Assembly (NCBI GenBank): GCA_043812495.1 | Contig: JBDRMG010000053.1 | Location: 1-33,716 of the forward strand | Length of the DNA stretch: 33,716 nucleotides | Reading direction: 5' to 3' | Source: Candidatus Omnitrophota bacterium | GTDB taxonomy: Bacteria > Omnitrophota > Gorgyraeia > Zapsychrales > JBDRMG01 | Part shown: positions 1 through 33,714 of the stretch, piece after piece | Layout: every line of letters starts with the position of its first letter | How positions within the stretch are numbered: position 1 is the first letter of the stretch | Translations under genes and position numbers: made by a program | Notes under the pieces: model-generated | Database searches by the model: none | What the model saw: only the letters and a program-made list of their open reading frames with translations | What the model was told of the DNA's origin: nothing

Positions 1-3000
1 TCGCTTGCTCACCATGAATCTCTGTGGAGATTCATGTTCCGTCCCGGATATCCAGATTCCCCGGATAACCTAGTCCCCGATTCCCGGATAACCAGATCAC
101 CGATTCTACATATACTATTACTCACCCTTCTCGCCGCGGCCATTGTTTTAGCATTGACAAATCCAAAAGCTCTAGAGCAAGGATTATTCTTCGGCGCTGG
201 CTTTTTGGGCGCCATAATCGAACCACGGCAGTTCTCTTTAGAACCATCGACCTCAATTTCTATAGATCCGCGCGCCTACCCTGATTCATCTACCGTCGGA
301 CAAGAATGGGAGATCATCAGGAAAATTGTTCCCCAATGGAAGAAAATACAAAAAGAAGTCGATCTGTTGTGGCGCGATCCGCGCACAGATATCAAGCTTG
401 CCTATTCGTATGTTGCAAAATACGTGTCCAATCAAAAACAAATCACGCTGTTAATTGACTACAACAACCGAGGCTATAAAGCAGCCAGAGATGTTCTTAT
501 GGTTATGATGACGCCCTTGGTCATATGTTGCGTTCTATCCATCAGGAGTCGTTATCCAGATTATGATTTGAACAGAGAGGATTTGATTCATGTCGGGCTG
601 TACGGTTCCTATCAAACATCAGACGCAGGGCTTGTTTATGCGTTAGGAAAATTAAAGGATTTTGATCCAAAATCAAGCACTCTGCAAACATTCCTTGCCA
701 AAATGATAAGATGGGCCATTATCCAGGAAGTCTATAAGAAGATTTTGCCAGTATTGGGCCGAGAGATTTCTATTCACGGGTCTTTATCTTCAAAGACAGG
801 AAGGGAAGATGATTCAGATATAAAGACTTTAGAAGATAAGCTTTGTTGTTTACCTCAAACGCAAACGCCTACGGAGTCGGATGTTAGTCAACCAGCAGAG
901 ACGACGACCGCTTTGCTTCATGCTTCCCGAAGACCAACTCGAGAAAAAACAATCGATAGTTTGCGGCAAAATATTCTTAAAAAGAATCCTGCTTTACAAG
1001 AAGCCATGAGCTCTATGGATAGAGAAGAAATAGAAAGGTTAATCCATGCCTTACGGATCAAGGAGGCTATCAAACAGAACCTTAGGGATTGTTTATTTAA
1101 CGACGAATTCAGGACAACGCGATTTGGGAAGGAAAAAAGAGCAGGAGTCAGCGCCTCTATCCATAGAGCTGCGGAGCGCCTCAATGATAAATTAAACCAA
1201 CTTTTTGCCAATATCTCTCGCGTACGGATTACGGGCGCGGTCGATATCCTCAGAGAAAAAATCCTTGGTCAATATCCTTCTTTGGAAAAAGCCATGGGGA
1301 CTATGGGCCAAAGTGAAATAAGAAGGTTAATACAGACCCTATCGATCGGGGAAGAATATAAAAAACTTCTCGCCGCTTGTCTGTTCCATCAGACACTTAG
1401 CGTCGCTGATCATGAAAGACTCACAAAACCAGCAATATGGCAGATGGTACAGGGAGCTGCGCGGTCTCTTAATGAAATATTAGCGCATCTTGAGTCAGCA
1501 AAAGATCAAAAATTATCGACCGCGAAAGTCGCCAGCTATACAACATTTCCGATGACTACGGGAATGATCATCCTCGCTGCTGTTGTGATCGGATTGGCCC
1601 TGGGCGTTCTTCTTGTGCCGGGAGTGCGGAAGTGGCTCGCCCGCCTCATTAACGCGCCGGATGATCAAGAGATAACAGAAACCAGAGCACAGAAACCAAA
1701 GAGGCTGCTGGCGCAAAGCTCATACTCATCCGTGGCTGGGGACTTGAGCTTTAATACTGCGCCAGCGGCCTATGAATTTAAAGACGAATTCCAAGGATCC
1801 CGGACCTCTCTTTGGCGCGAAGTCTTCAGCATCGGTTTGACTACTTTGTTGATATTGACACCGTTTATCGGAAATTGGAGTCAAGCCTATGCAAAACAAC
1901 CATGGTCTTCGGGGGTGGATCTTAATATCGCGCCTTTCAAAGACGGTATTTATATCGGTTTAACCATTCCCTTAGATAAAAATACGCAACAAATCGAGCG
2001 TCCCGCGCCTAAAGTCCACTTGGGATGGCAGGATGTGGCCTTAACTGTCGCAACCGCTGGCTTATTCTTGATGCTGCGCAATGAGGTGAAAGCAAAAGAT
2101 CAATTCAAACATATTTTCACCAAGCATACTTATTACGAAGATGGCACCATAAAGATGACTACAACCTTAGAGCATTCTCCAGGGCCAAATGATTTGCCAG
2201 CCTATCTTTATGCAGATGTTCTGAATGCCATAGCCTTGAGCACTTTCGGCACTGTTCGTTCACATGGGTTTAATATGCCCCACCTGATCCGCAATACGGA
2301 AACCGCCGCATTTTTAGGCACATCCAAATTTGGATTAAAATATGCCACGATCGAATATCGTGACATTGACGGTTTTTCCTGGTTAATGACCGTTGGCTAT
2401 GATGCGGCCAATTCCGGGATTAAAAATCTGCTGCGTTATGGGGAAGATCCGTTTTATGTGCTCGAAACGGACTTGTTGGTTCCTTTCGTATTTCGATATT
2501 ACCCCCAGGGTAATCGTCAGAACAGTTCGTGGGATTGGAAAGTATTACCGGGGACAGTTGCAGAACTCACTGAGAACATCATTCAGGGATATCGTTTTGA
2601 CTTCAAGAGCTCTCTCAAGGTCGCTGCCCCAGTTTTTGTCAACGACGATCCTCAAGGCATGCTGAGCCATCTAAATCATAATGTGATTACATTAAGTAGT
2701 GAAGATAATGTGATACTTTGGCATGAAAAGATTCATGCCTTCAATTTTCATGATGAGATAGGAGTCACTCTCGTTGGTGATGAGGAAATTTCATCGTTAC
2801 TTAACAAAGCACCTTATTTGGGAGACTTCGGAACTTACCGGTTTTTAATAGATCACATCAGCTGGCAGCACGCTTTCAACTATTATGTTTGGTGCTATTT
2901 TAATGACTGGGCTAATAAAATTCACGGCTGGAATGAACATGACCAACTGCTTGAAGAAAGAGAACCGATGTCTTGGACGAATGATATTCGATTTAATATG

Positions 3001-6000
3001 GAATTAGAACGCTTTTCAAGAGAATTTCCATTTCACCAACAGCAGAGTATTCCGCAGCAGGATCCGTACGTTAGTCCCGAGGCCAGGATTATCAGTTCAT
3101 GGGTGGCGCTCAATCTGATGCCCAATGTCCTGCAGTCTTTTGTGGTCTCAAGCGATCCGCAAAGACGCTTTCCTGCCGATACATCGGCCGTTAAAAGCGA
3201 CACAACAATCTCTGTATCATCTGAGGAGCTACATAGCCTCATTTTGCCTGTTGGCATAATTGGCATTCTGATTCTTGCCGGCCTTGTCATAGTGGCAGTG
3301 CACCGCAACTGGTTCGGACTGAAGGATGTGTTTGATAGGGTTAAAGAAAAGATTGCTGGTGTAGTCCCCCATCGTTTTGCCGTAGGCAAAACGGACATGG
3401 GGGATCCCGCTGATCGTTTTGCCGAAGGCAAAATGAGCGGGATCCAAACAGACAAGAGGCCGTTGGTACAGGGAAGTAGCCTTCAGTCATTCCCTCGACA
3501 AGCTCGGGACGTTGCAGCTATCAGCCATCAGCAATCACATCAGCAATCAGCTGAAAGCCGAAAGCTGATAGCTGATAGCTCAAATGCGCTAACGGCCCGT
3601 TCTTTATTGGTTCGACTCGCTTCGTCCTTCGGCAAGCTCAGGATTCAGCTCGCTCACCACTGGTTGAAGAGTCGAGCCACCCTGCCCGTCCCGCCGCTTC
3701 GCAGCGAAAACCGCGGGCCGGAGAGCGAGTTCCGCCGAAGGCGGGGGGATCCAGTAATGACAACACAATTTAAGGAGATTTACTTAATAGTTTCGAGGTG
3801 GGTTAAGCGATGGCCGTGGTCTTTGAGAGATACTTTTATTTCTGAGACATCAGTTTTCAGGACGGCGACATCAGACTTAAGGATCGCGACATCAGATTTC
3901 AAAACAGCAATATCTGCCTTCATTATTCGAATATCGGCCTGGATTATAAATATTTGTTCCTTCTGCTTGCCCAATTCTTCAAATACGATATCAAGCTTTT
4001 TCTTGACAACCGATAAATCATCGATAATCGTCTTGATATCCGAATGGATGTTCTCAAGCACGACCGCGAATTCCCTGTCCTTGGAGAATTCTTTGAAAGC
4101 CTTTGTTGTCTTGCTGCCTTTGCTTTTCATAGCGAGAGTTATTGTAGGCCGGCGAAAAGTTATTGTCAAGGCAATTTCTTCCAGTACTCATGGAGCAAAA
4201 GAGAATATTGCGCCAACGGCCTCTTTCTTTAAACCTTGCGGCATCAACTGGCATGCGGTTTTAGTAGCCGTCCTTGTGACAGTGTTGACATTCTTGCCCC
4301 TGCCAAGCCAAAGGATCAGAGCCTTTGCCGAGGCTTTTGCCCAATCTTCATTGAGTTACAGCTGGAAAATAATGGATATGTACCCGGACCTTTACCGTTC
4401 TCTCAGCGCTCAGGAAAGGGCCATTTTCGACTATTTGATCGCTCGATTTGATATCCAGCCGTATCAAAAAATTCGCGTCGAATTCTTTGCCAAATACGCG
4501 CAATATATAAATGCCCGCCTAAAATACGATTCCAATTTCAGGAGTGAAGATTTTCTCGAAGAGTATTTTTGGTGGAAAGTGCAAACCGATCCGGCGTATA
4601 CGGGTGTCCGGGGCGACATAAGCGAATTTTTCAAAGGGTCCAGCGGTCAGCAGAGCGCGTGGTCCCAACGTCATATTTATGACAATCCCGACCACGTGAC
4701 CGCAAGCAACTGGATTGTCAACGATCAAATTCATCCCAATACGCACCGCGTCAAAGATAACGCGGATGCGCAAAATCACACCGCTTCTCTGAAAACTCAA
4801 TGGCATGCCGTTATGTTCTTCAGCCGTACTGTGCTCGAAGGCGGGTCCCTCCAAGAACGGGACTTGGCGGCGTTGCAGCAAATCGTTAATGCCATGCTCG
4901 CGCTCCAAAATAGCGACGGCAGTTGGTTCGGCACTTACCGTTGGGATTTTAATATTTCTCCGACGGATGAAAAACCCACTGATGACATTTCCGGCATGGC
5001 CACAAGCCTCATTGTCTATTACATCATCACAGGCGATGACAGCGTTTTGGACGCGGCCATTGCGGCCAATGATTGGATCTTAGGGCAGCAAGACTTAAAT
5101 GACGGCAATGAAACGTTTAACGCCTTTGGCTGGGGCGAAATACAAACAGACCAGGGAAGCGAAAAGATCAAAATCTTCCCGACGGTCTCGACCGCCATGG
5201 CCATAAATTCCCTCTTTGCGGTCTCAAGGTTTTCCGGTGAAAACCACGACGGCGCGGATTCCCTCAAATACATGACGCCGATTCCCTATGCCGCTGTTAA
5301 GTTAGTCTCATTTACAGGTTTTTGGGACGCAAGACCTCTGCCGGACGGCCAGCATTTTATTCTCGGCATGGCCGATACGACCGGTACGCTCATGACCGGC
5401 ACCGATGGTTTAATCGGATCGCAGACCGATCCCATTCTTGTTCTGGATTATTTCTTTGGATCCGGATGGCTCCCGTATAATCCTCAATCGCGCAACGGTC
5501 TTCCCTGGCTTAAGGATTCTCTGGAGAATACTATTGATGTCAATGATGTGACTATCGTAGGCTATCCGCAGGACCCAAGCTCCCCGAGCGTCTGGGCCCA
5601 AGGAACAGCGCAGGTCGGTATTGCTAACGGTGTTGTGGGCAATACCGCGAATGCCGAATTTAACTACGCCCAGGTGCGTCTCCTCAAAGACCCCGTGACA
5701 GGCGGCATTTATTACAGCCGGGGCAGTCCTGAACAAGGCTGGCCGTGGAATTATCCTTATGCCGATGTTACGGGCACGATTCTTTGGATGCTTAACGGCA
5801 GCGGGGTCACGGTCCTCAATATTCTTAATGTGGATGTCATGACCCCGGCGGACGAAGGCGAAGAACCCCAAGCTATTCCGCAAGGCGTTCTGCTTGTCCG
5901 CGACCCGGCCCAGCATATCAATTATCCCAACCCGTTCAATGACGAAACCGTTATCCGTTATGAACTTTACCGCAGGAGTGATATGACGGTTCGCGTTTAC

Positions 6001-9000
6001 AATATGCTGGGGCAGCTTGTCGAAGAATTCGAGGAAGGCTTGCGCGAACGCGGCGTGCACGAAATCCGCTGGGACGCCGATCCCGCGGCGAACGGCGTGT
6101 ATCTTATTCAAATCGAAGCCAGAGACGACAAACTCAAAGTGATCGATACCGAAACCGGCAAAGCCGTGAAGCTCCACGCCGCCCTGTGGCCGTTGGGGAT
6201 GATGCCGTTGAGCGGGTTGGGCTGGACGATGCTGGGGCTTGGGGTGTTGGCGGTGGTTGCGGCGGGAATCGGGATTGCCTATTGCTTGTTCAATATTTCA
6301 AGAAAGGCGCGAGGGGTGACTATCTCAATACCTTCCAGCGGAGACAACGCGAGAATATCCTTATCGCCGGTCACAAGATATGACTTAGAGGCCAGCGCGC
6401 AGGAAAGAACCATATTGTCTTTGATATCTCGACATATCTTCACTTGGATACGAGGATTATTAAAACGAGCTTTTTCTTTAATCAAGGCAATGAGAAGCTC
6501 GCCGTCCGCGCTAGGAATGGCAAAAGATAGTTCCGGTTTTCTTACGGCAAAGACGAGTTCATTCAGGAGTTCATCAGATGTAACGAGCAAAAATCTTCCT
6601 TCAACGAAAGCGTTGATAATCGCCCGCGCTGATCCTTTCAATAGTCCGCTGATGAACACATTCGTGTCAATGACGGCTTCGAGCATAATATTCGTCTCTA
6701 GCCTGATGGACGATTTTGGTGATTTGCTTCTGAGAAAGGGGATTCTTCTTAAGGCGGGCGTCAATACGAGAGAGCAATTGCTTAAATCGCGCCTTCCAGG
6801 TGTCGCGCTCAAGCTCTTGAATCAGCTTGACTCTGTCTTTGGTGGGAAGTTCCAAAATAGCTTCCTTAAGCTGCTTGGAATTCAATTTGATTTTGATCAT
6901 GACTCAAGTATAGCGTTTTCAAATAAAAATGTCAACACCCCAACCCGGCAGGTATTGCAACCTGTCTTTGTTTACGCCGGCCTCGGGCCTGTTGGGATGA
7001 TGCCGGCTACTGCAATCGACTGGATCATATTGGGGATGAAGGTGTCGCTCGTAGTGGCTGCGATGCTTTTCGTTTATCAGGCCATCCTCTATGTGAGGCA
7101 TATCAAAAACGGCGGGACTTTCTTCCCAACATTTGTTTCTCCAAAGATGAAATACATTTCTCTCAAAAACCTTATAGGATTTTTTGTATCCCTTCCAAAG
7201 AATATTGTACCGCCTAGCTGGATTTTACCTCGCCATCCTATAGATGCCCCTGTATTGGGTGATCCGGGCATAGAAAAGCTGAAGCTAACAGAGATATATC
7301 AAAGAGACATTCTTGGGATGCGTGTGTTTTCTAGAGACATTGGGCCGAACCCAACTGCCTTTATTCGTAATGATTGGGCTGTTATAAGAGGCTATGGATG
7401 TGTTAGCAGGGATGGTTGGTGGGTAACAGAGTTACGTGATGGGGACACAATAAATCTTATTCGCTGGGGTTATTATCTTGCAAAGTTAAAGAAAGAATAT
7501 GGCGTAAAGAACGCGGCGATCATTAGTCACAATGCTCATAAAGGCGGCTTAGCAATTCCTGCCGGAATGAAAGTTGTGATAGTCTCTGGATATGTGTCAA
7601 TCTTTAATTCTTTTTGGATAGGATATGTCTATGGTCTATTTCAATTGATCGATAATAGTCGATCTGCAGAAAATCGCATCATTCATCCATCTCCATTTAC
7701 AGGTTGGGATAAGCTGTTATGGGCCATTCGCATTAGGATTATGTCCATGCAGAAATCCTTAAAGCGATCCACCAGACAAATGGAATCTGCTGAATCTAGA
7801 GTAAACATCTTTATCCCAATACCATTGATTGCAGCGGATGGAGCAATGCTGGGGATTGCGGCGTTGGTGTCGGTTGCGGCGGGAATCGGGATTGCCTATT
7901 GCTTGTTCAATATTTCAAGAAAGGCGTGCGGCGTGAATATTTCCACGCCTTTAAACGGGGACAGTGAAAGAAGTCCTTGCCTTCTCGATCTCTTGAGAAA
8001 TCTTTTTATTGGAAATCTTAAGTCTTTTACGGCGTTGATCGATGCTCGTCAGGATCGCGTCGAGGCGCTTAGCCCACGTTTCCTTTTGAAGCTTACGAAA
8101 CAGCTCAATTTTAAATCTTATGGGCATGCGATCAATGATCTTCTCAATTTCCTTCTCGTTAATATCCAAAGACATCTTAATCATAATTCAAATCCTCCTT
8201 GTTTTGATTTCAGTATAGCGTTTGCGGGTAAAGATGTCAATGTCCGGCATTATCAAATCGCCAAGTTGCCGGTCTATAGCTTCGCCGCCGTCGATCCGAT
8301 GGGGATGATGGGGATTGATTTGTCGGTTGAGGTTGTCGTCTTAGGCCTCGTTGGCGTCTTGTTGGTGGTTTTGGCAAGGATGATGGTAAAGGCGATAATG
8401 ACAAATGGCAAATATCAAATGTCCAATAAATTCCCAATGCCCAATGTTAAATGGGTTTTGATTCATTGGAAATTTGTCATTGGTCATTTATTTGATATTG
8501 GGAATTTTTCATTTGGCATTAAGAACGAAACCTTGTCTCTTCCAGCAACATCCTATTGCCTCTTCGACCCCACGGGCTTGAGCCTGATTCCGATGGTTCT
8601 TCCGCTCTTAGGCGCGATCATGAATCGGGCAGATGTTGAAAGCAAAAAAGAAGAAATCATTGCTCGATTTGTCGAATGGTGTAAAGAGAGCCATATTGTG
8701 CCAGATGCAAGTAATGTTGAGAATTACTTAAGTGCTTTTACGGGCGGGTTGGACGATATTGTCTTGGAGCTTGCGTTAGAAATCTGCGGACAAGATGAAG
8801 AATCAGCATTAGCCCTTGCTGAGCAGTTAAAAAGCGACCTTATTAAGGGAGCAACCGCAGCCATAGAGAGCGAAGAGTCCGCCGAAGACAAAGAAAAACA
8901 AGAGGCGCTGGAAAAGGAACAACAAGAAAAGTTTACTCTGACAAAAGAGTTTAAAGTCGCATTTAGCGATCTTGGCTCCAGCAATACGGATAAAGCGCAT

Positions 9001-12000
9001 CACGGAGAAGCAGTCATAAATCGATATATTCAAACACAAGGCAAGAGCGTCATTTTAAAATTAGTCGAAATACTCCAGGAATTAAAAAGTAAAAAAGATG
9101 GTCATGTTAAAAGAACATTTCATTCCGGAAGAGGACAAGACCTCAATAAGACAGCCGTGAGAAATCAGGTCAGAAGAATCAAACAACTGGTTTTGGACAC
9201 ATGCATCGCGTGGCTTGGCGAGGGCAATGAGGCCCAGGTGGCCATGGCCGAGCGCTTCATCCGTCAACTGGGAGGAAAAGAAAATTTAAAACATGCGCTT
9301 GGGGAGCTTGGAAGAAGAGAAAGAAAAGGGCGATTAAGCGAGAAAGAAGCGGCCCAAAAAGAAAATATCAATCGCATTCTCGCGGCTCTCGCCGTTATGC
9401 TCTTGGTCCTTATTCCGGCGGCGCTTATTTTCGGTCAATCCGCTTTCTACGCTCAAAACATGCTGCCTTTGGCCGCGATGGTCCTGGCCGGAGTTCTACA
9501 AAATTGCCAGGAAAAAGAAGACCCCGGTTTGTTAGATATCGTTACCACCAGGCAGTTGCTGCTTCGACAATTAGAGAAAGCGCTCGAAAATCCCGAGGGT
9601 ACAATAGCCACATTCATCCAGATTACAAGTGAACTCATGAGACTGGGCCTGAAAGAAAAATTAATTGTCTTAAGCGCGGCTGTTCAAAAGGAAGTTGGAA
9701 GACTTAAGGACGTTGTTGAACAAATCAAAGCCGGCAAAGACGCGGCTGACTTGGCTTCCACGCTCCAAAGCATAAGCCAAAATCTGGATACGGCCGGCCT
9801 CGATGACATCATTCAAGCGGTTGATAAGATACCGCGGATTGAAAGAAACTTATGGCATGACGTGAAAAATGCTCTAGGGTTCATCACGGGCGGTCTCGGC
9901 CTTCTCCTGGCCCTGGAGGGCCAGAAGCAAATCGACAAAGCGCAGGAATTTCTGGATTTGATTGTGAAGGGAATCCATGACGCCGCGGACATCATCGGGG
10001 GCGATGCCCTTTATGAAGGAGAAACAGAGGATGACACGACCATCGGACTGTCCGCCGTGTTCGGCCTGCCTTTAAGCTGTGAGATAGCGCTTTTAGCCGG
10101 ATTGGCGGTTGGCCTTGCGCTGGCCGTGCGGTGGTTAAGAAATATTGTTTTCAGCCGCACAAACCTCCCTTATCGAGGTCATAACTTTGTTGTTTTGGGC
10201 TATGCGTTCGGGGTGCTGCTGGTCGCGGCCGGGCTTTTTATGGCCTTGGTCGCGTCAGTTGAGTTGATACGAGCCGGCCAGATCGTTTTGGGTATCGTGG
10301 GAATTTTGTCAGGCTCTATCAATATCGCCATGGCCTCGGCGCTCGCAAGACTTTTTGGCATGTATCATTATGAAAACAAAAAAGAAGCCGCTGTTTCCCG
10401 CCAAAAGAAAATATTCAACCGAATCCTGCCTTTGACTGCCGGCATCACCATCTTGATCGGTCTTATGAATATCAGCTCTCTGACGACCGTTGGAATTATT
10501 TTCGGAATTCTGACCGTGATCGCGGGCAGTGCGGTCATGATTCTTCAGCCGCACCGGTTTGACCGGGCAGAGAAGGCCATGGCGCAGAAAACAGCTAATC
10601 AAACCCTCAGACATCTCGAGAATGGAGATCTCCATAAATGGGACCTTTGGGTCAAAATTCTCGAAAAGCTTCTTCGCTATGGCGGTCCTTTGGCCTGCGG
10701 ATGGAAAGTTTTCAGGAAAGACGGCACCATGAAAAAAGGCGTTCAGAAAGAAGCTCTGAAATTCCTCAAAAAAGCAGATATTATCCGCATCACCGAGGCA
10801 CCGGAAGAGTTCAGCCACATACCGCAAAATATTTTCCAGAAATTGCAACAAAAAGGCTGGCTCATTGTTTGTACGGATTCTCCTTATCTTTTGAACAAGA
10901 ACGGAAAACAATTCCTCTTTGCTTTAACGCTTCATGAAAAAACAGGCTACCTGAATGAAGGGAAATATATCACCCTCGGCTTACTTGATCAAATGCGGGC
11001 GTTAGGCGGGCTTGAGGAACTTAATGATCTCATCGCTTTCGAGAATAAAAACCAGGAACAAAAGAAGGAAGATGCTGGCGAGTCCGAAGTATTAGCCCGG
11101 AAAATACTCGATGTTCTCAGAATCCGGCAAAAACAGAAAATGACGGTTTTGATCCTTTGCGATTACAATTTGGAGCGCTCCGTTATGGCCAGAGCTCTTA
11201 TCGATGCGAGCGCGGACGAAGGTCTGCTGGATAGAATCGACATCATTACGGCCGGGATTTCTTTATACGAAAACTATCTCGACAGAGGCGCCGAGAGGGA
11301 GCTTCTCAGAAGATTGATCCAGGACCAACCAATCCTCTTTGGCCATATCCCTGTGGCCGCGCAAAGCCGTCAAATCAGACAAGCCGGTCTAATCTTGGTC
11401 ATGACGGAAGAACAAAGAGCCTTTCTGATATCAAAATATCCCGAGATTGAAAAGAAAATATTCCTGCTTCTTGGGGATAAGGATTTACATGCCACTCAAG
11501 ATGACCGCAAGATTATTAATGGCAAGACCTACCAGCCTTTAAGGCGAACTATCGAAAATCATTTGGACAGTATTCTTGACCGCATCGAATCAGCCGCGGC
11601 GGATTACGCGGGGGTTATCCGCAAAGAAGACGATTCGCTTAATAAAACCACTGAAGCAGAAAATGGTCCAATGGCCGGGTCCGGGCAGGGGCAAAAAATG
11701 CCATTGCCAACAAGCTCTCAAGAATTCCAATCACCCGCCGGAAGACTTTTGGATGCGTTCAAACTCCATGAAGCTAAAATTATTGAACAATCCGAGAATA
11801 ATATCGTGGAGGGCTTAACCATTTACACAATTGAAACCCCTGAGAGAATCGACAGGACCGAGGCGCCGCAAGGATTGGAGATTTTGGATAATGAATTGGC
11901 TGCGGTCAGACGCTTCGATCTTCTGTATAACGATAACAGTGAGCTTATTGCGATCTTCCCTGTGCTTGAAAGGAAAGCAGAAGGTGCCCGATACATTGAT

Positions 12001-24000: not shown

Positions 24001-27000
24001 ACTTCTTTAGCGGAGCAGGCGTTTGCTTCTAGCGCTGTTCTTGCGCCTTTGGCATTGATCGGATCAATTGCAACACAGGATTTTGGCGATTTTGTTTGTC
24101 AATATGATCCGGATGGCAATATTAACTATATTGTCAATCAAAATGGGGAATTATTGGCCCTTTATCGGCATCTTGATGAACAAATCAACGAAAGCTCAAT
24201 CGAAAGAGTTAAAATTCGGAACCTATTTGCTAAGGACCCGGAATACATTGTCCTTGAGCGTGATTATTCTGATGGCCATATCGCGTTTTCTATCCTTGTG
24301 AATAATGAATTCGCGGGCTATCGACGTTTCCAAATAGAAGACAGAACTTTTGTCTTGGAAAAGATTAAAGTTAAAGATCACTTCAGCAATCAAGGCATTG
24401 CCATGAGTATTTTAAATTGGCTAGCCCTGGAAGCAAAAAGAAAGTCCTTTGGGCTAAAAATTGAAGGCATACACAATCCGCTCATTACTTATTTTGCTGG
24501 CAGAATTTATGATCCCGAAAGAAAGATTATGTTTTCTGCCGTTCCGGGAAAATGGTCTGCGCATGACCATGTTGATGCTTCATTACTAGACTCCGAAGTC
24601 GTCGGTCCCTTAGAAATCATGACAGGGGAAGAGAGGCCGGCGTTGTTGCGGCCTCAAAAAACGACTGATGGAAACTTAATAACAAAATCATCAATCGAAG
24701 GCGTTGATATTAAAATGGATGGACTCAAAATCATAGCGATTGATCAGGAAAGTGGCAAAACATTACAAATCGAGTACAAAGGACTTATTTCGCTCTCCGG
24801 CTGGCCAAAACCGATCACAACGAAACAGCCAAGAGACCAAAAACCAATAGGCGGAGTTTCCTCAAATGTTGATAATCGTAGATCGCATCTTGCGGCAACA
24901 CCTTTGACCGGCACAGAAGCCGTGATTAGCATCGATTTTGCAATAATATTGTTAATTATTGCCCCGCTCGCCTGGTGGATTTATTCCGCTCTAAAGAAAA
25001 GAAGACAGACGGATTACTTGGACGAATATTATAATCAATTCAGCAAAATGCCGAAATTCAGCGTTCTTATCCGGGATATCTATTGTCAAGGGAAAGCTGT
25101 TTATCGGCAATACTTCTTCGGGCGATATTACGGAAAGGTGAAGAAACCCTTTGTCTTCCTCGCGCGGTTTATCAAAAACCTGCCTCGTGGAATACTTCTT
25201 CTCTTCTTGACGATCGGCGCGATCCTCGCCGTCATCATTTTTATTTTGCTATCTGCGGAAGCGTTTGCTTTGAGCGCCATGTTGTTGCCTTTCTTGGGCT
25301 TGATACAATCGGACGATAAAGACCATAACTCTTGGTATGCATCCGAGCCAAAAATGTTTGTTGACCCCGATGTATACATCAATGGCCTCAGGGCAATTGG
25401 CCGGGCCATAGACGAATGGCGATTCCACGAGGGAATGCAGTTGGCTGACATCTACCGACTCTCCCGGGGAGATCCAAAGCCGGAAATATTTGATGACGAA
25501 GTTTTGGAAGCCTATCGGCCTGCCATAGAATTGTTTAACCAACTTTTGGGTAAAGAAATGAAAAGGGAGTTCGGCCCTTCTACCCTGCTTTATGGAATAA
25601 AAAGATTGCATTATCTTTTCTCAATAGCTGATGCAAAGACTCGTCAGCAATCCGGGGGGCTGCGTCCTGACGCCCTTGGTCAGTTTGAACGATTGCTTGA
25701 GTATTTGTTTAGCGACGAATTTGGGGAGCGATTACACAAAGAGGCCCTTGATGCCATCAGCGATATTTTCATCGAACTCCTCAAAAGTCAAGTTTTGGGT
25801 TCCGGAAATCACCGCGTCTTTGGGCTTGCCATGAACTATATTCTAATCAAAACCGGATATAGTCCGTTGATCTTGACAGATAATAATGTCGAGGAATACC
25901 TGAGAGCAGCCTATCCGATCATTTCAGAAGATGAAATTCTAAACGATGCGGCTTATGCGCGGATGAAGAAAGACATGCAAGCGCTGCTTGAAAAGAATGT
26001 CAGGCGCATAGAGGACAAGCTCCAGAAACGTCTGTCCGGCGTCAACGGCCTTCTGACACGCGTGGAACGGGATCCTCGCTACGGTTATTTGAGAGACCTT
26101 GCGGATCCGCAAGGTACGGGTGAGCTGGCTGCGGACGAGAAATGGAGTCACGTGAATCAGGAAGATTTTGACTGTGGCCAAAGAGAAGAAAATACGAGAG
26201 AGTTGAGGCCTCATTTACCCGTCATTGTCGCTTTTGCCAAATGGATCCTGGATTGCGAGGATTTTAAAGGCAAAAAACTTGTCTTCTTGGGGCGGTCTTG
26301 TGATCTTGTCTATGACGCGGCCGAGGCGCTCACACATTTCGATTCCGCATACCAAGATCGGCAGGGAGATCTTTTTGTTGTGGATTATCCCGGACAGTCC
26401 TTTGAGCATGTCTTGCCCATCAAGCTGGCAGGGTATGCGCAAGAAGCGATTGGCCTTGACCCAGAAAATACTCAGGGTATCGTTCTGATTAATGAGATGA
26501 TTTTTGGGGCAAAAGGTCATCTCTGGAAACAGATTGAAACTCCGGAAGAAAAAATTGATACGGTCATTATGCACGCACGGGGCCGGAAAGGAAAAAATAC
26601 CTACAGCCAGAATGTCCCCCGCGAAGAACGGCAGGCCGTCATAAACGCCGCTTATTGGCTCGGCAATCGTTATGACAGTGCCAGAAATTATGACGTAAAA
26701 GGAGGTGGAGTCAATACACCGACTCTGAGATACAGTTATTTAACAAATTACGCGCTTAGACGTCTCCTGCACAAAATGCTTATTGCGGATGAAATCAAGG
26801 GAATGCAAAGGCCTCAAGGGATCGCCATCCTCGGTTGCGGACGCTGGGCCTTTTTGAGAATTATTCCGAAACTTTTGGCCTTGCGCCAAAACCCGGATTT
26901 TCCGTACTTTAGCCAAGATCAAATCATTTATCTGGTCCGTCCGCGCGACCCGACATCCAAAAAGAACAGTCCCTGGCGGAACAATATCGACGGGGTTTTA

Positions 27001-30000
27001 CAAAACAATTCCAATATCCAGATTCTCGACACGGAAGAAGAAGCGATGCAACACGAGGATGTCGGCATAGTCATAGCGGCTAAACGCTTTGCTAAAGACA
27101 ATGAAGAGGTTTGTCTGCAAGCCCTCTTGCATGGCAAGGATGCGTTTACGGAAAAGCCTCTGGGCCCAAGGGCGGACGAACTCGCCGCTTCGGCAGAACG
27201 GCTAAAGAAAATCTATGCCGTTGGTATGCAATGGATTTATGATCCCGACCTCCTCTTTCTTAAAAAACAAATGAAACAATTGGGCCCGATCGTATCGATA
27301 GAAGCCGCTCTGCTCAATTCAAAAGAAAATGACGATATGGACCAATTTGACAATCTTGGTATTCACCTTTTAGCTGCTTTAAATATACTTTTGGGTGACC
27401 GGCTCAATTGCTTTGAAAATCTGACCCTGCTCACTGATGCCGCCGAGCATACAAAGCGCGTCTATGTCCGGTTTGACCTTAACGGGACAGGGCCCCTGTC
27501 GGTTGTCATCAAGGCCGATAATTTCTACAAAAGCGACAAAGAGCGCCGCTACATCACCGTCTGCGGCGAATACGGTTCAATGACGCTTGATTTGATGAAT
27601 CCGCGAACGCTCACCGCGCGCCTCACAGAAGACATCCCCGGTTCCGCAGCAAGAAGTATAACTCTTGAACAAAATGTTGACCGCGATGCGATTCGCATAG
27701 GATTCGAAAGATTTTTCCGGGCCGTTGCCACAAGAGATGAGGGCATGCTTGAAACCAGCGTCCGAAAGGTCCTGCCTGTCTGGAAGATCGCGAAGGATAT
27801 TGAGCAATTAATCCAAGATCAAAGCAGCGAAAAATCTCATCCTGTTTCTCCTCAAGGTGCCGGCAAAAGAAATACCGTTGGCACATTCATGCCGCTTTTG
27901 CAGGTCCGCTCAAAGCGCGACTGGGGCGTTGGAGATTTTGAAACTATGAAAACAGCGGTTGATTTCCACTCGCAAACGGGTCAAAACATTATTCAGATTC
28001 TGCCGTTTAATATGTCTTCCGCCAATAATGCGCCGTATTCGGTGGCCAGCTCAAGATTGATGGATCCGGTTTACATCGGCATTGAGGGTCTTTTAGCTGA
28101 AATCAATAGCCCGGCTGCCCGTCAAGCGATTCAAGACAGCCTTCAAACTATCGAGGAATTACGACAAGCCGATCAGGTTGATTATGAAAGAATCCGGGCA
28201 CTCAAACTGAGTTTACTCAGGATGATCTGGGAATCTTTCCGGAAAAATGAAAAAAGCGCTCTGAGCAGGGATTTCGACATCTTTCAAGAGGAAAATAAAA
28301 GTTGGCTTCAAGATCATGTGCTTTATCTCATTCTTAAAGACTTCTATATCAAAGAGGAAATGTCCTCGGGCGCTGACTGGAACAAGCTGAAGATGTGGGA
28401 TTGGCGAAATTGGCAGGCGGGCTTGCGCGACCGTAACGCGCAAGCGATCAGCGCGGCCAAGAGCCAACATCAGGAAGAAATCCTTTTCGGCGCCTTTGTT
28501 CAGTTTGCCGCTTTCCGGCAGTATCGTCAGCTTGTTCAATACGCAGAAGACAAGGGCGTTGAATTTATGATTGATATCCCATTTGCCTTGGACGGCGCGG
28601 ATATCTGGATTCATCCCGATGTCTTTGGTCTTAAAAAAGAGAACGGATACAAACGCCTTGTCACGCAAGGAGTCCCGCCTGAGGCGGCCTATCTGGCCGG
28701 TCAATACTGGCAGTTCTATCCGTATGACTGGAGTCATCCAAAAGCGGTTGAATTCATCCTTGATATGTTCAGATTCAACCAGACAAAAGCCACCTATATC
28801 CGCTTGGATCACGTGCTGGGTTATTACAGGAGTTATCTCTATACGGAAGATATTGACGCAGAAATGACCCTTGAGAAACTTGGATTGGACGAAGAAATCG
28901 GGAGATTGCAAAAACAAGCGCAGACAAAAGGCCGCGAAGCAAAACAAGAAGCCGTTAAAGAGGTCTATGAATTAATTACGAAGAAGCTTTTGGATTTGAA
29001 CGGTTCTCAAGGTAACCGGCTTCCTTGCGGATTGCCGGAGGATGCTATTTCTCTATTGATGGACGAAGAAGGAAATCTTTCTTCTGATGCGATGATTCGT
29101 GTCGGCCGGCAAGTTCCCGATGGTAAGATCAATGAAAAACTGCCTGAAGATTCACCATGGGCCAGGACATATGTCGTGGAAAAAGCGGTGTACCGCACTC
29201 AGCCGCAATGGGATTTTATCCGCATTACACCAAGTACCCCAATCAAGGATCAAGGATTCCTCTATGAATATTTATTCCCCGAAGATGGCAGCAATGTCCG
29301 GCCGACGGATAGTATTCATCTTGGATATTTCAAGCTGGCGCTTGGCGAAGCCATGATGAGCGAATTCTTAAAATTGGCTCAAGAACAGGGAACAACACTC
29401 ATTTGGGAAACGCTCGGCGTTGTCCCGCCGTGGATTCAGGAATCCGTCGAACGCCTGGGCGGCACCAATTATATTCCGGTGATCTGGGGTGAGGTGCCCG
29501 CATGGGGCAAAATCAAGAATCCATATCATCCGTCCAACCATATCGAAAATGCTTTTGTCACGTATGGTCTGCATGATTCCTGCTCCATGAGAGAGCGATG
29601 GGAAAATGAAGAAGAACAGCTCAGTCGAACCACCAAACAAGACCTGCTTAAAGAATGGTTTGGCCAAGATTGGAGCGATGACGATCTTTTGACCCTCACG
29701 CCCAAAGTTCAGGAAAAATTATTAGAGTTGGTTTATTCGTCAAAAGCAAAAATAGCCGTATTGACCTGGATCGACCTATTGGGATTAGGGGATGGGTATC
29801 GTCTCAATACGCCGGGCATTCAGGAAGGTCAGTGGATTAAGCGGCTGCCTTCTGATGTGACGTTTGAAGATTTATTAGCCGCGGCCGAAGGCAAGCCCTC
29901 GACGCAGAGAGCCGAGGACGCTGTTAAGCTGATTCACCGTCTTATGATTGAGGGCCGCAGAATAAGAGCTCTGGAGGGAGCCCGTGATCTACCTGTGCTC

Positions 30001-33000
30001 GGCGCCCTCCCCTTGCTCGCTGGGTTTTCATGGAATGATTTATCGAACATGGTACAAAATCCGGTGGTTCAGGTTGTACTTATTCTTATCATCATCGTAT
30101 TGGTATGGCTCATCCGGTCAGCGGCATTGAAAGTTTCTAAAAATCGCCAACAAAAGCAAGAAAGAGACAATAGAGACAGAGAACGCGAAAGACAATTTAA
30201 GAATGATTTTACGCCAGCACAGGACGGAGAATTAACAGCCGTGCATAGCGTACGATTCCAACCCCTGAAAGAAGCAACAATAGAAAAACCCGAAGGACAA
30301 AGTGGTATTGATGAGTTCTTAGCCTATGCCCTGACGCCGGCCCAAGTTATGGCCTACGTAAAAGGCCGGCAATCGGACAATAAGCTTGGCTTTACCCGCA
30401 TCCATTTGGTTGAAGAAACAGGAAAAGTTGCCCGCCGGTCCCTGGGGAGCCTGACCGCCCGATTACATCATTGTCTGTTTGTTAACAACGCAGAAGGAGA
30501 GCGCGAAGGCGCGCGCTCTGCGGATTTAAGCGAAGGTGAATTCATCGGGGAACAATCTTGGCATAATGTGTTCGGCGCCTTTAATGTGGATGAATGCGCT
30601 CCCGCCCTCAATTCACTGAGTCGCGGCCTTGGTCTTTCGTCCTGGGCAGCTCTCATGTACCAAGAGCAGAACCGGAGGCGCCCCCTGCCGCCCACGAAAG
30701 GTGCCGTCTATCTGGAGAAATACTTATTGTCTCCTGAGGTGGCCGGCGCCCCGATCGATTGTTCTCTGCCTTTAAAAGAAAACGTGGACAGAATTATCGA
30801 TGAGAAATTCAAGTATTCTCTTTGGAGAAAGATTACCAATCCTTTCTTTAATGGCTTGTGTCGCATGCTTGGAGAAGAAAGAAGTGAGCAATGCAAAGAA
30901 ATAATAAAGTCTGCATTGAGATTTCTTCGTTTTCCCGTTGATCAAAGACGATATCGGAACTTTAAATTAGCTATGCTTGCCAGAAGGCATTATCTCACGT
31001 GGATTAAGCAGCTTATTTTTGAGATGGGTATCAAACTGGATAGCAGAGATGCACAGCGGGAATATGAAAAAATTGTCGCGTATGTCGATTCTGTCGAAAA
31101 AGGTAAGTCCGTCGGGATGTATCGAAGCGGTAATCTCACGCTCGTTGCGGCCGGGGACGCGACTCCTGCTATCAATCTTGCCCTCATGGATGGACAGATT
31201 GATTGCTTTATTGGAGCAGGTCGCGGCATTGAAGGCCTCATGGCTGCCCTGATTCTTAAACAGCACGGCGGTGCCGTTTATGTTAAACCCCTTCCCTTGG
31301 AAGCATTAAAAAGAGGAGGCAATATTGATGATAATAAAGAAGATTTTACATCCGCCGAGGAAGCGGATCTAAGAACGGTGGAAATTGTACGACCCGGAAC
31401 TCAAAAAGGACGTCAGATTCCATGGAACCGGACACTGGACATCCATGACCTCATTAGGACAGAACAAGCCACCATGGTGGCTGTTGCCTTCGGTGAGAAA
31501 AATCCCTGGGGATTCCCGGATTCAACGATGGATGTCCAAACTGGCCTTATCACTGTTCCCGTACTTATCTCGGATAACACAGGCGAAATGTTCATAGCGC
31601 ATATCACATTCCGTACGAATATTTCCGAGTCTCTGGAAGAAATGGCAAAGAAGAAAGGTAAAAGAAAATTATGGGCCACACTGGACTGCGCGAGAGCTTA
31701 CTGCAAACGCGGTATTGCCGTAGAGGCGGAGCAGTTGCTCAGAAGCCTAGAGCTCGATCTCAAGCGAAATTCCCGAAAGAATAAAGAATTTAAGCAAAGT
31801 GCGGAGGGTAGAAGATTTGAGTCATTGATGGAGGCGTTACGTGAGTATGTGGCTTTCGTCAGGATTATGTCGTACGGCAAAAAGGAATTGTTCGGAAGGA
31901 CGGAGGGCGCGCAGAAAGCAGGTGATTCTGAGGATAAAAAAGGCAGGGTCACGATCTATGAAGGGCTTTATGATGTCGGCTTAAGGCATTTGGAGAACGT
32001 CATGAATCTCGACGAAAAGGATTATGTCGGCGTGCGAACGGTCTATGAGCAGCTCATTCAGTTTCTGGCCTGGATAAACCATCGGGCCGGTGTATTGAAA
32101 TTTGATCAGTATGAAGAGATTCTTGAGGGAAACATTCGCCCTCTGGAAGAGCGGCTTAAAATAGAAAAAAGTCCCAAGCCCACCATAGCCAAAAAATGGG
32201 AAAGAAAAATATTTATTGAAGAATGTCAGACCAGCTTGAAAAAAGAGCGCGATAGAGCCAATGCGCTCAAAAGCCAAGGAGTGCAAGCCTTAGAAAAATC
32301 CAAAAAATTTTATGAGCTGATCATTAATATAGAAAGCGAATCAGAGTTTATGAAGTGGGAAAAAGGAATTGCCCGTTTGCGCCTTCAAGAAATTGATTAT
32401 CTGAAAGACACCATGGTGGGTGGAGGAAAAGACCTCCAGGCGACCTGGACGCAGCTGGGTAATATTTTAGAGAAAATTGCAGAAGTTCATGATAAAAACT
32501 TAGGCTATCATTTCACGGCCCTAAGGACCTATCAGGCGAGCTTAAAATACCGCTGGAAAGCCCTTCACAGATATCCGGGGCTCGCTCCTTTTGACACGCT
32601 CAACAATACAGGGGATCTCTTAAGACGTTTAGGGCGATACGTGGAATCCATGGATCATTACAGGATGATTGTTTTTAGAACCACCAAAGGGGTTTTTGCC
32701 CTCGATGAAGAAGTCGACAGCTTCAAGCAAGATCCTCAAAATTATTTGCAAGGGGAAGGCGGAGACTATGGCTCAATGTACCGTTCCGGTCTCTCCGAAG
32801 TATTCGCTGTGCGTAGGGCCGTCAAAGGCATCATTGATTGCGCCGTCAATATGGTCGGCAGAGACGATATTCGGGGGATCGCCGATGAACTGGATGACCT
32901 CTTTGCGCATGAAGATATTCTGGTGCGAAGATGGACCATCGATGTCCTTAAGGAAAGGGCTCTGGGCCGGGAGGAAGATGCGCTGGACCGGAAAAAACTT

Positions 33001-33714: not shown

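Follow-up and report, generated by a model that had tools for sequence, protein, structure and literature searches.

The window analysed here, a stretch of 33,716 nucleotides that is an entire contig (C53; G000:C53) of a Candidatus Omnitrophota genome, is quite probably the middle of a giant Omnitrophota gene composed of membrane anchors and payloads and translated through its linkers, with toxin-antitoxin (TA) operons on the opposite strand as some of the payloads. Giants themselves are known; what is new relative to the literature searched is the TA content of antisense genes inside them. West-Roberts 2023 (bioRxiv 10.1101/2023.11.21.568195) names two open questions about genes of 10,000-100,000 codons: whether they are truly translated in a single frame, and by what route they grow. 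The nested genes, being of known families, serve as an internal control for read-through of the giant frame, and they mark module borders and point to an exchange of payloads where the flanks code for anchors. Whether bacteria have antisense genes embedded entirely in another gene is disputed; those described here belong to standard TA families and recur in dozens of genomes. Since annotation misses giant or nested genes, TA counts for the phylum are probably too low.

An open frame of 11,238 codons

Translated computationally, frame +1 (positions 1-33714, plus strand) contains no stop in 11,238 codons, while the other five frames of the window have 410-718 stops and no open stretch longer than 295 codons. 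This bears out the first-pass annotation, which had described a frame stop-free through the whole window and an ORF of more than 11,200 residues open at both ends. Neither a start nor a stop is present, and the frame is open at both ends because the contig terminates there; both ends fall in repeats. C42 is the only contig with a demonstrated link to the window, through a 27-nt end overlap that is in frame and located within a repeat, and joining it lengthens the frame to 14,590 codons. Giant-ORF pieces of this genome (completeness 90%) sum to 93,478 codons on 14 contigs, not in one assembled frame, and make up 14.5% of the genome. The proposed Omnitrophota origin agrees with ribosomal protein uL2, for which all five organism-named entries among the best 120 matches are Ca. 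Omnitrophica/Omnitrophota.

An assembly chimera, or a non-coding region open by chance, might be suspected from contig ends in repeats, from the scatter of giant pieces over 14 contigs, and from the lack of a read set spanning modules: two DNA runs returned short contig pieces only (12 of 16 listed without mismatch), none spanning whole modules, and this read evidence is too thin to weigh for or against chimerism. Such an artefact is nonetheless very improbable given the contrast in stops between frames, the known domains sharing a single frame, the overlaps between different giant contigs (in frame in 9/9), and the recurrence of this nesting in 25 further genomes from the order, a count overstated to the extent that kin are not independent. 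A chimera is not expected to keep a frame through repeats and antisense operons. It should be said that the frame is interrupted twice elsewhere among the genome's giant pieces, by a one-base shift (C20) and by a shift within a hairpin repeat (C63), so either read-through has exceptions or the assembly is wrong at those points.

About 17 unrelated domains had been claimed for this frame. Some 15 are detected, with firm support for seven: five above curated cut-offs (Por_Secre_tail, LMWPc, HATPase_c, Glyco_hydro_77 and the NF033874 SidJ-related pseudokinase) and two by fold search or Atlas (an (alpha/alpha)6 glycosidase/epimerase fold and a Fic-like domain). The other eight lie below cut-off (sigma-70, HisKA, methyltransferase, HEAT, GNAT, GFO_IDH_MocA, GlpX and TPR; Table 1). 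An AlphaFold2 model of the glycosidase-fold domain (pLDDT 72.9, pTM 0.81) aligns in Foldseek at TM 0.63 to MmpH, glucose-2-epimerases and GH76, and the GH77 domain has RLDH, WETLG and LHD motifs, which we take to be catalytic. Seven weaker NF033874 matches in the order all lie within open frames of 1,883-18,668 codons; a search of the family's only other genome did not find the SidJ-related segment, and sequence search with it and with alignments A1 and A2 gave no solved relative. Sister giant contigs of the genome encode GT5 and GT1, TPR and M23 (C65), M50 (C11), methyltransferases (C19) and, where the C45 piece begins, an N-terminal C39 peptidase.

The transmembrane (TM) segments claimed for the giant frame are likewise present, a hydropathy scan giving 28 TM-like segments in the window. 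In the giants of this genome, basic residues follow the TM helix in 110 cases and precede it in 38, compared with 171 and 161 cases in ordinary ORFs (p 2e-6), whereas an uncut polytopic chain would be expected to alternate. One explanation, to which we give a little under an even chance and which is compatible with anchors plus payloads, is a polyprotein: a single translated chain cut near its anchors into many single-pass, N-out/C-in enzymes, with the linker peptides discarded. Putative cutters are the N-terminal C39 peptidase that begins the C45 piece, the M50 domain in C11, or signal peptidase, and cleavage was also proposed in West-Roberts 2023 (bioRxiv 10.1101/2023.11.21.568195). However, the asymmetry did not show in 43 segments from relatives (24:19), re-entrant hairpin anchors could produce it without cleavage, and neither a prepilin-type motif (G-F-T-L-x-E; 0/110) nor a double-glycine motif (7/110) is enriched ahead of the anchors.

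The first-pass annotation also suggested a possible toolkit for manipulating a host or prey. On this reading, which is also the West-Roberts model, the giant protein would be exported and its domains would act on or in the prey cell. In keeping with this, a signal-like helix precedes the glycosidase-fold domain and its Ig-like tail, the SidJ-related, Fic-like and phosphatase domains are similar to effector folds, and a giant of V. archaeovorus is reported to reach a 3-fold higher abundance when cells are attached (West-Roberts 2023, bioRxiv 10.1101/2023.11.21.568195; Seymour 2023). Nielsen & Lui (bioRxiv 10.64898/2026.06.07.730766) leave four hypotheses open. Only the glycosidase-fold and Ig-tail module of the window looks exported; most domains come after an anchor with a basic C side, which by the positive-inside rule would place them in the cytoplasm. 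Families that normally work in the cytoplasm account for most recognisable domains of the window, including its GH77, GlpX, histidine kinase and sigma-like domains. The active-site loop of the Fic-like domain and the GlpX-like site both look degenerate, furthermore, beside what we take to be the respective family motifs. We consider an attack on prey unlikely to be the role of this protein.

Table 1. Features of the window (coordinates are window positions)
Feature	Position	Strand	Evidence or remark
Sigma-70-like region	484..1029	+	below cut-off; TIGR02937 E 0.0084; Sigma70_r2 E 0.079
Coiled-coil protein gene, 116 aa	3780..4130	-	nested; paralogue nested in C65
Promoter-like site TTGACA-17-TACAAT	4141..4169	-	10 nt upstream of coiled-coil ATG
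(alpha/alpha)6 six-hairpin glycosidase/epimerase-fold domain	4681..5910	+	preceded by signal-like helix
Por_Secre_tail / FlgD Ig-like domain	5923..6132	+	PF18962 36.6 bits; TM anchor next, 6232-6288
PIN-family toxin gene, complete, 135 aa	6279..6686	-	PF13470 66.9 bits, profile 2-115/115; TIGR00305 81.1 bits
VapB15-like antitoxin gene, 77 aa	6667..6900	-	overlaps toxin start; NF047401 45.4 bits, below cut-off 80
Promoter-like site TTGACA-17-TATACT	6907..6935	-	11/12 consensus match
Decayed second cassette	7896..8184	-	VapB15-like antitoxin 7951-8184 and PIN toxin remnant 7896-7979
Promoter-like site TTGACA-17-TATACT	8212..8240	-	11/12 consensus match
Intergenic-type short-period repeat, read in frame	8397..8524	+	repeat comparison
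HisKA-like segment	9847..9996	+	below cut-off; PF00512 E 0.0044
Low-molecular-weight protein tyrosine phosphatase domain	11146..11511	+	PF01451 32.7 bits; C-x5-R loop
SAM methyltransferase-like region	12436..12756	+	below cut-off; TIGR03534 E 0.0018; PF05175 E 0.017
SidJ-related pseudokinase domain	13621..14976	+	NF033874 411-415 bits, cut-off 300
Histidine-kinase ATPase domain	20026..20463	+	PF02518 48.6 bits
In-frame linker with hairpins and intergenic-type repeats	22300..22830	+	copies elsewhere
HicA toxin gene, complete, 73 aa	22972..23193	-	PF07927 52.6 bits, profile 1-58/58
HicB antitoxin gene, 71 aa	23194..23409	-	PF15919 29.9 bits; AGGAGG ribosome site
Promoter-like site TTGACT-17-TATCTT, extended -10 TG	23444..23472	-	9/12 consensus match
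Intergenic-type repeat, read in frame	23770..23960	+	repeat comparison
GNAT-like segment	24250..24453	+	weak, E 0.05-0.13
Fic-like domain	25318..26070	+	Atlas score 0.94; 168-173 features common with Fic clusters
GFO/IDH/MocA oxidoreductase NAD-binding domain	26824..27225	+	below cut-off; PF01408 E 0.00037
4-alpha-glucanotransferase (GH77)	27892..29850	+	PF02446 273.8 bits
GlpX fructose-1,6-bisphosphatase-like region	31135..31482	+	below cut-off; PF03320 E 1.8e-5; also TIGR00330
TPR-like repeats	32461..32664	+	below cut-off; PF13424 E 0.005

Toxin-antitoxin genes on the opposite strand

The alternative-frame ORFs of the window had been dismissed as shadows of the giant frame, which does not hold for several of them: judged by profile matches and gene layout, these are complete, conserved TA genes antisense to the giant frame. 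Three of 111 alternative-frame segments exceed Pfam cut-offs (PIN_3, HicA and HicB), all on the minus strand, and in total the giant frame harbours two intact operons (PIN-toxin/VapB15-like and hicBA), one orphan antitoxin and one gene for a coiled-coil protein, each preceded by a promoter-like site of the sigma-70 type. The coiled-coil protein matched no family above cut-off in Pfam and other profile scans. The nested TA units adjoin membrane-anchor segments, the stop codon of the complete PIN toxin falling within the end of a giant-frame TM anchor. In 9/9 nested PIN homologues D7, E43, D87/D90 and D108 are invariant. The VapB15-like antitoxin upstream is probably leaderless, with its ATG 6 nt past the -10 box; no solved relative of it was found, nor any metagenome relative of the window's antitoxin sequence. 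The orphan antitoxin of the second cassette has an AAGGAG/AGGAGG ribosome site, and its PIN toxin is reduced to the last 27 codons, yet the giant frame stays open over the deletion. HicA carries what we take to be the family's GSH motif. The adjacent HicA and HicB domains, with the hicB stop adjoining the hicA start and with promoter-like and ribosome sites, have the composition of a hicAB operon. A promoter scan of the whole window did not rise above chance (30 vs 24.9 and 29 vs 25.4 sites), and it is only placement that is informative: the three sites matching at 11/12 are all on the minus strand, directly upstream of nested genes.

Nesting extends well beyond the window. Of the TA loci found in this genome, nine of 11 lie inside giant ORFs and two outside (binomial p ~1e-6), a disproportion inflated by a search that was more thorough inside giants. 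The other giant contigs hold 1,244 alternative-frame ORFs, of which the 144 best by codon score were scanned; nine pass cut-offs, and all nine are antisense, seven of TA type and two from an IS630. Relatives have 8/17 PIN matches, 7/29 HicA loci and 13/29 DUF433 loci nested antisense. In an antitoxin-profile test set beforehand, 12 of 15 new matches were nested, including 10/10 at E<=1e-12, as were both matches in metagenomes (2/2). The strong new VapB15-like/PIN matches always have the antitoxin in phase 0, and the toxin is in phase 1 in the 10 PIN loci examined, at identities of only 32-47%; constant phases at such divergence suggest long residence or spread within giants rather than fresh random insertion. 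The PIN query found five loci in named genomes (Chloroflexota, Thermodesulfobacteriota), and no long frame encloses any of them; 0/14 viral PIN loci were nested.

Selection, probable read-through and proposed cassette exchange

A recoding null (0 stops vs ~44 expected in 19 nested ORFs) would by itself be circular, as the nested ORFs were picked inside open frames, and it was set aside in favour of flank-defined groups and the antitoxin-profile test. All 16 same-order loci whose two 600-nt flanks share an open antisense frame are free of stops across the TA core (13/53 loci were dropped for short flanks); L041, from outside the order, has open flanks but nine core stops. Between loci L056 and L057, substitutions by nested codon position number 13/6/43 in hicA and 18/10/44 in hicB, and residue changes in the nested versus giant frame 13 vs 47 and 17 vs 42, respectively; among antitoxin pairs the giant frame is the more divergent in 132/136. 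The 17 antitoxins use TTA/CTA in 0 of 120 leucine codons and TCA in 0 of 77 serine codons, where ~36 would be expected. That silent positions are saturated and yet these three giant-frame-stopping codons are absent provides sequence evidence for read-through across linkers. The nested proteins are conserved and the giant-frame residues scrambled, without stops, which argues that selection maintains read-through as well as the nested genes; as far as substitution patterns can tell, purifying selection on the nested frame coincides with stop avoidance in the host frame, as in an embedded antisense gene. In duplicated giant-frame stretches (704/545/681 substitutions by codon position) the third-position signal is weak and comes mostly from TPR copies.

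Some linkers contain intergenic-type repeats. The linker at 22300 has similar copies in C63, C65 and non-giant contigs, and in rough, gapped alignments 6/6 matches outside giant ORFs to the repeat at 8397 have a stop in the equivalent frame, as do 8/11, also roughly aligned, to that at 23770. No regularly spaced repeat family appeared in a repeat scan of the window. The window's two vap cassettes are 84% identical in the anchor flank, 76% in the promoter and 49% in the antitoxin gene. TA loci start no more than 35 residues after a TM in 7/9 cases and end no more than 45 residues before one in 8/9 (the upstream border of locus C42b was set too far out, making its distance to the next TM unreliable), compared with about 18% of random sites within 60 residues.

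We hypothesize that the giant gene is made of units, each a membrane-anchor segment plus a payload. Most payloads would be enzyme or signalling domains in the giant frame, and some whole TA operons in reverse, each with a promoter and a ribosome site of its own, such that both strands are coding. Ribosomes would pass through the linkers in the giant frame, since a stop would remove everything downstream, with the linker peptide itself as filler. Cassettes may enter or move by recombination at anchor-coding flanks, the survivors being those without stops in the giant frame. In the least certain step, by analogy with chromosomal integrons, the TA cassettes might act as addiction modules limiting deletion of a ~280 kb repeat-rich locus. 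A rival account differs from this one solely in whether the giant gene benefits: TA modules and IS elements may land at random in low-constraint linkers, where stop-free copies persist and decay while the giant gains nothing. The IS630 and the intergenic-type repeats are likewise read through, 18 of the 19 nested ORFs occupy two stop-poor antisense phases (11 phase 0, 7 phase 1), and among HicA domains that stand free, many come close to lacking stops in the aligned antisense frame and 6/22 lack them altogether, so that a mere filter at insertion accounts for part of the pattern. Random landing is harder to square with the nesting and fixed phases of the strong, divergent VapB15-like/PIN matches (10/10) and the invariant catalytic acidic residues. 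The toxin is broken or deleted in five loci, with the giant frame open throughout, and such recurrent decay fits selfish passengers and stabilisers equally. We rate pure passengers a serious possibility, somewhat less than even.

Comparison with known systems

The kind of giant seen here is supported as a known Omnitrophota one, the Archaeovorin type (bioRxiv 10.1101/2023.11.21.568195) or multi-enzyme class 1 (bioRxiv 10.64898/2026.06.07.730766), and domain content in the window and sister contigs matches the giant multi-domain membrane-protein class that had been proposed. Proteins of at least 10,000 aa count as 'large', and those of at least 30,000 aa as 'giant' in West-Roberts et al. (bioRxiv 10.1101/2023.11.21.568195). 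Shared features are the phylum, a very long single frame, TM density (one helix per ~400 residues here, ~1 per 370 in a published example), and a mix of GT5, GT1, FBPase, HATPase, GNAT, methyltransferase and TPR/HEAT. The published type has an N-terminal signal with a C39 or S8 peptidase and, in most but not all, a divergent SecA DEAD domain. In this genome an N-terminal C39 peptidase lies on a sister contig (C45) separate from the window, and SecA_DEAD was not found in the giant contigs (two matches in the 90% complete genome, C10 and C55). Both texts mention TA genes solely as flanking or mobile cargo (bioRxiv 10.1101/2023.11.21.568195, 10.64898/2026.06.07.730766), and the terms 'antisense', 'nested' and 'opposite strand' are absent from both texts; in the literature searched, TA operons nested in giant ORFs are undescribed, though preprint supplements may bear on this.

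In Vibrio superintegrons, TA cassettes are reported to limit large deletions (PMC8876359). Like those cassettes, the nested operons have their own promoters and are spread along an extended series of modules that can be exchanged. Unlike in integrons, the series forms a single open frame that continues through the cassette, the flanks encode membrane anchors, and a stabilising role is a proposal by analogy. No integron integrase was found in the genome's contigs, beyond which the true ends of the giant locus lie; the only two tyrosine recombinases (301 and 291 aa) are on non-giant C16 and C18. It is tempting to speculate, though we think it doubtful as a whole, that Omnitrophota giant genes amount to cassette arrays kept in frame and parallel integrons without an integrase, with anchor flanks as recombination sites, one polyprotein as product and a stop-free antisense TA lineage, adapted to that frame, guarding against deletion.

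In olg1/olg2 of Pseudomonas aeruginosa, young ORFs are overprinted on an old gene (PMC8850804), a complete gene lying, as here, opposite another with selection on both frames. Unlike olg1/olg2, the nested genes are of old, well-known families and the host frame is filler; they comprise whole two-gene operons of several families in many genomes, with predicted translation. Ordinary type II systems (TIGR00305/PF13470 with VapB15-like; HicAB; DUF433-DUF5615) match the nested operons in gene order, size, coupling, promoter and catalytic residues. What departs from usual type II TA is location inside another gene's open frame, a position occupied by the VapB15-like lineage in nearly all strong matches of the order.

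The giant open frame and its class

The contig is the window end to end, in a genome of 1.94 Mb on 66 contigs, and frame +1 is open at both ends because the assembly stops there. Computed translation bears out the first-pass annotation in reading this frame as stop-free, with 0 stops in 11,238 codons compared with 410-718 in each other frame; the giant open frame is real, and an artefact is highly improbable. The many domains and transmembrane (TM) segments claimed for it also hold up. Five domains exceed curated cut-offs in a giant-frame profile search (Por_Secre_tail, LMWPc, HATPase_c, GH77 and a SidJ-related pseudokinase), a six-hairpin glycosidase/epimerase fold (fold search, TM 0.63) and a Fic-like domain supported by Atlas add to these, eight further domains score below cut-off, and a hydropathy scan marks 28 TM-like segments. 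Most of the window's domains are likely cytoplasmic, a position that fits poorly with a prey-attack protein, which is rather unlikely.

The pseudokinase passes its model cut-off in this genome alone among 168, and each of its seven weaker matches lies within a very long open frame. Another segment has no family match in the profile search and contains Cys, His and Asp, at a spacing that we take to be close to a transglutaminase/papain-type triad. Near the window start, ~440 residues between a signal-like helix and an anchor, with a HEKIH motif at aa 909 and no family match, are probably an exported module.

Among the best 120 matches to uL2 of this genome, all five that name an organism are Ca. 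Omnitrophica/Omnitrophota. The genome holds 16 giant-ORF pieces on 14 contigs (93,478 codons summed), and overlaps between different giant contigs are in frame in 9/9 cases (two comparisons, 7 + 2); in one of the nine, contig C42 overlaps the window start by 27 nt, inside a repeat and without proof of a join. At the beginning of one piece (C45) stand a start codon, a signal-like helix and a C39 peptidase; none of the genome's pieces was recognised as C-terminal. A giant-frame profile search of the sister pieces, other than C20, C63 and small contigs, found TPR, GT5+GT1, M23, M50, methyltransferase and sugar-isomerase domains, and a domain search of the giant contigs found no SecA_DEAD. A 2-kb contig, C55, carries a fragment of a second SecA gene with a frameshift. 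Two pieces contain frame breaks without obvious restart: on C20 the frame shifts by one base within a domain, and on C63 it shifts inside a hairpin repeat directly after a TM anchor; each break is either a real mutation or an assembly error. The earlier attribution to an Omnitrophota giant multidomain membrane protein agrees with the uL2 matches and with domain content that matches the Archaeovorin or multi-enzyme class, as set out in West-Roberts 2023 (bioRxiv 10.1101/2023.11.21.568195) and Nielsen & Lui 2026 (bioRxiv 10.64898/2026.06.07.730766).

Toxin-antitoxin genes antisense to the giant frame

The assertion that callers report only shadow ORFs here has to be withdrawn: Pfam cut-offs are passed by three of 111 alternative-frame window segments, all on the minus strand, namely a complete PIN toxin, HicA and HicB. 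The coiled-coil gene and both vap units each have one of the window's three best promoter matches (11 of 12) immediately upstream, a promoter-like site (9-of-12 match, extended -10) lies upstream of hicB, and the only strong minus-strand ribosome sites are those of hicB and the second VapB15-like antitoxin.

Coordinates of features in the window, its sister contigs and a related genome (G002)
Feature	Location	Strand	Remark
Module between signal-like helix and anchor	window 1900-3220
Coiled-coil gene	window 3780-4130	-	nested unit 1 of 4
VapB15-like/PIN operon	window 6279-6900	-	nested unit 2 of 4
Second VapB15-like gene, then just the final 27 PIN-toxin codons	window 7896-8184	-	nested unit 3 of 4
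SidJ-related pseudokinase	window 13621-14976
Cys/His/Asp segment	window 17854-18030
hicBA	window 22972-23409	-	nested unit 4 of 4
IS630-type element (L005)	C20 8479-9484	+	antisense in giant ORF
Frame break	C20 ~33,600
Nested pair (L008)	C63 11,559-12,047		antisense
Frame break	C63 ~17,100
Small paralogous genes	C11 ~13,180-13,600 and ~19,690-20,050	+	same strand as giant, out of frame
Second vap cassette copy (L102)	G002:C13 2798-5893

On the other giant contigs, the 144 best by codon score among 1,244 alternative-frame ORFs were scanned, and 9 of them pass cut-offs, all antisense: three PIN, DUF2283, DUF433, DUF5615, HicB and two ORFs of an IS630. Toxin-antitoxin (TA) loci in the genome number 9 inside giants vs 2 outside, the inside having been searched harder. 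Locus L008 has a TTGACA promoter; its first gene, of 88 aa, has no Pfam match and presumably resembles DUF4258/BrnT, and DUF2283 follows. The C11 paralogues (~89 and ~111 aa) have GGAGG ribosome sites, and their differences concentrate at giant codon position 2 (4/26/6), their own third position.

Nesting recurs in 25 other genomes. With the window's PIN as query against 40 genomes of the order, 8/17 matches are antisense in a frame open across the whole 2-3.4-kb locus, in one common phase and each with a VapB15-like partner; the nine free-standing matches pair with other partners. Nested loci make up 7/29 of the best HicA loci from other genomes and 13/29 of DUF433 loci (same-strand nesting 0), and both metagenome antitoxin matches are nested (2/2); nested PIN loci were found in 0/14 viral and 0/5 out-of-phylum cases. 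Absence of stops is itself the definition of 'nested', so two tests free of that circularity were added. Flanks were long enough in 40/53 loci, and the TA core was stop-free in 16/16 same-order loci (three from this genome) in which a single antisense frame is open through both 600-nt flanks. A profile built from 10 antitoxins matched 20/168 genomes prospectively; 12/15 loci outside the profile are nested, including 10/10 at E<=1e-12, and the three free loci rank among the weakest matches. Because kin are not independent, these counts are not probabilities.

Signs of selection on the two strands

In the codon-aligned antisense pair L056 and L057, both hicBA loci, substitutions by nested codon position are 13/6/43 in hicA and 18/10/44 in hicB, and residue changes number 13 in the nested vs 47 in the giant frame for hicA, and 17 vs 42 for hicB. 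Differences are greater in the giant frame for 132/136 antitoxin pairs, and the PIN acidic residues are invariant (9/9). The third-position pile-up, the giant-frame excess and the invariant residues together argue that the nested proteins are conserved and that the giant-frame peptide above them would be filler.

Seventeen antitoxins nonetheless contain none of the codons that would put a stop into the giant frame (TTA/CTA 0/120 Leu, TCA 0/77 Ser; the codon usage of this genome predicts ~36), and TTA/CTA make up 0/43 Leu codons in nested HicA vs 31/119 in free HicA. The giant frame stays open despite a broken or deleted toxin at window 7896-7979, on C20 and at L035, L089 and L102, and it crosses intergenic-type repeats whose copies outside mostly carry stops. 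Locus L102 has deletions in both genes and lies ~5 kb from an intact copy, the frame being open over both. The IS630-type element, single-copy in the genome, consists of an HTH_33 ORF linked to a DDE_3 ORF by a G5-A6 run, and is crossed by ~350 open codons (~1 kb). The simplest reading of the absent stop codons and of a frame open over broken toxins, IS630 and repeats is that ribosomes would have to pass the giant-frame linkers. The TA cassettes may protect the giant locus, by analogy with chromosomal integrons, where such protection comes from TA cassettes that carry promoters of their own (PMC8876359), or they may merely ride along; toxin decay is compatible with either.

Anchors, payloads and known systems

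TA loci start <=35 residues past a TM segment in 7/9 cases and end <=45 residues ahead of the next in 8/9 (random sites, ~18% at 60 residues), and the flanking anchors are, by eye, often near-duplicates. Between the window's two vap cassettes identity falls from 84% in the anchor flank to 76% in the promoter. The antitoxin gene reaches just 49%, a pattern that an exchange of payloads between homogenised flanks would produce. Loci L070 and L071 have a hicBA cassette and the preceding module in common and differ after the cassette, and duplicated stretches among the genome's giants align 11,945 bases in frame and 161 out. We consider it likely that the giant gene would be composed of units of membrane anchor plus payload, read through its linkers and carrying backward TA cassettes, with both strands under selection. 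Basic residues after vs before TM helices number 110:38 in this genome's giants and 171:161 in ordinary ORFs, an asymmetry not expected of a chain that alternates and stays uncut; it is absent from relatives' segments (24:19), and a motif search before the anchors of this genome's giants found no cleavage motif. Processing of the product into single-pass enzymes is plausible, at slightly less than even odds.

The giant itself belongs to a known class, and the nested TA operons are the new element within the literature searched. The words 'antisense', 'nested' and 'opposite strand' do not occur in the main texts of West-Roberts 2023 and Nielsen & Lui 2026, nor 'antisense' and 'toxin-antitoxin' in the portion consulted of Seymour 2023, and a wider literature search, bioRxiv supplements excluded, found no description of TA operons nested in giant ORFs. 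The embedded antisense genes described so far, olg1/olg2 (PMC8850804) among them, are young overprinted ORFs; the nested TA operons present the reverse case.
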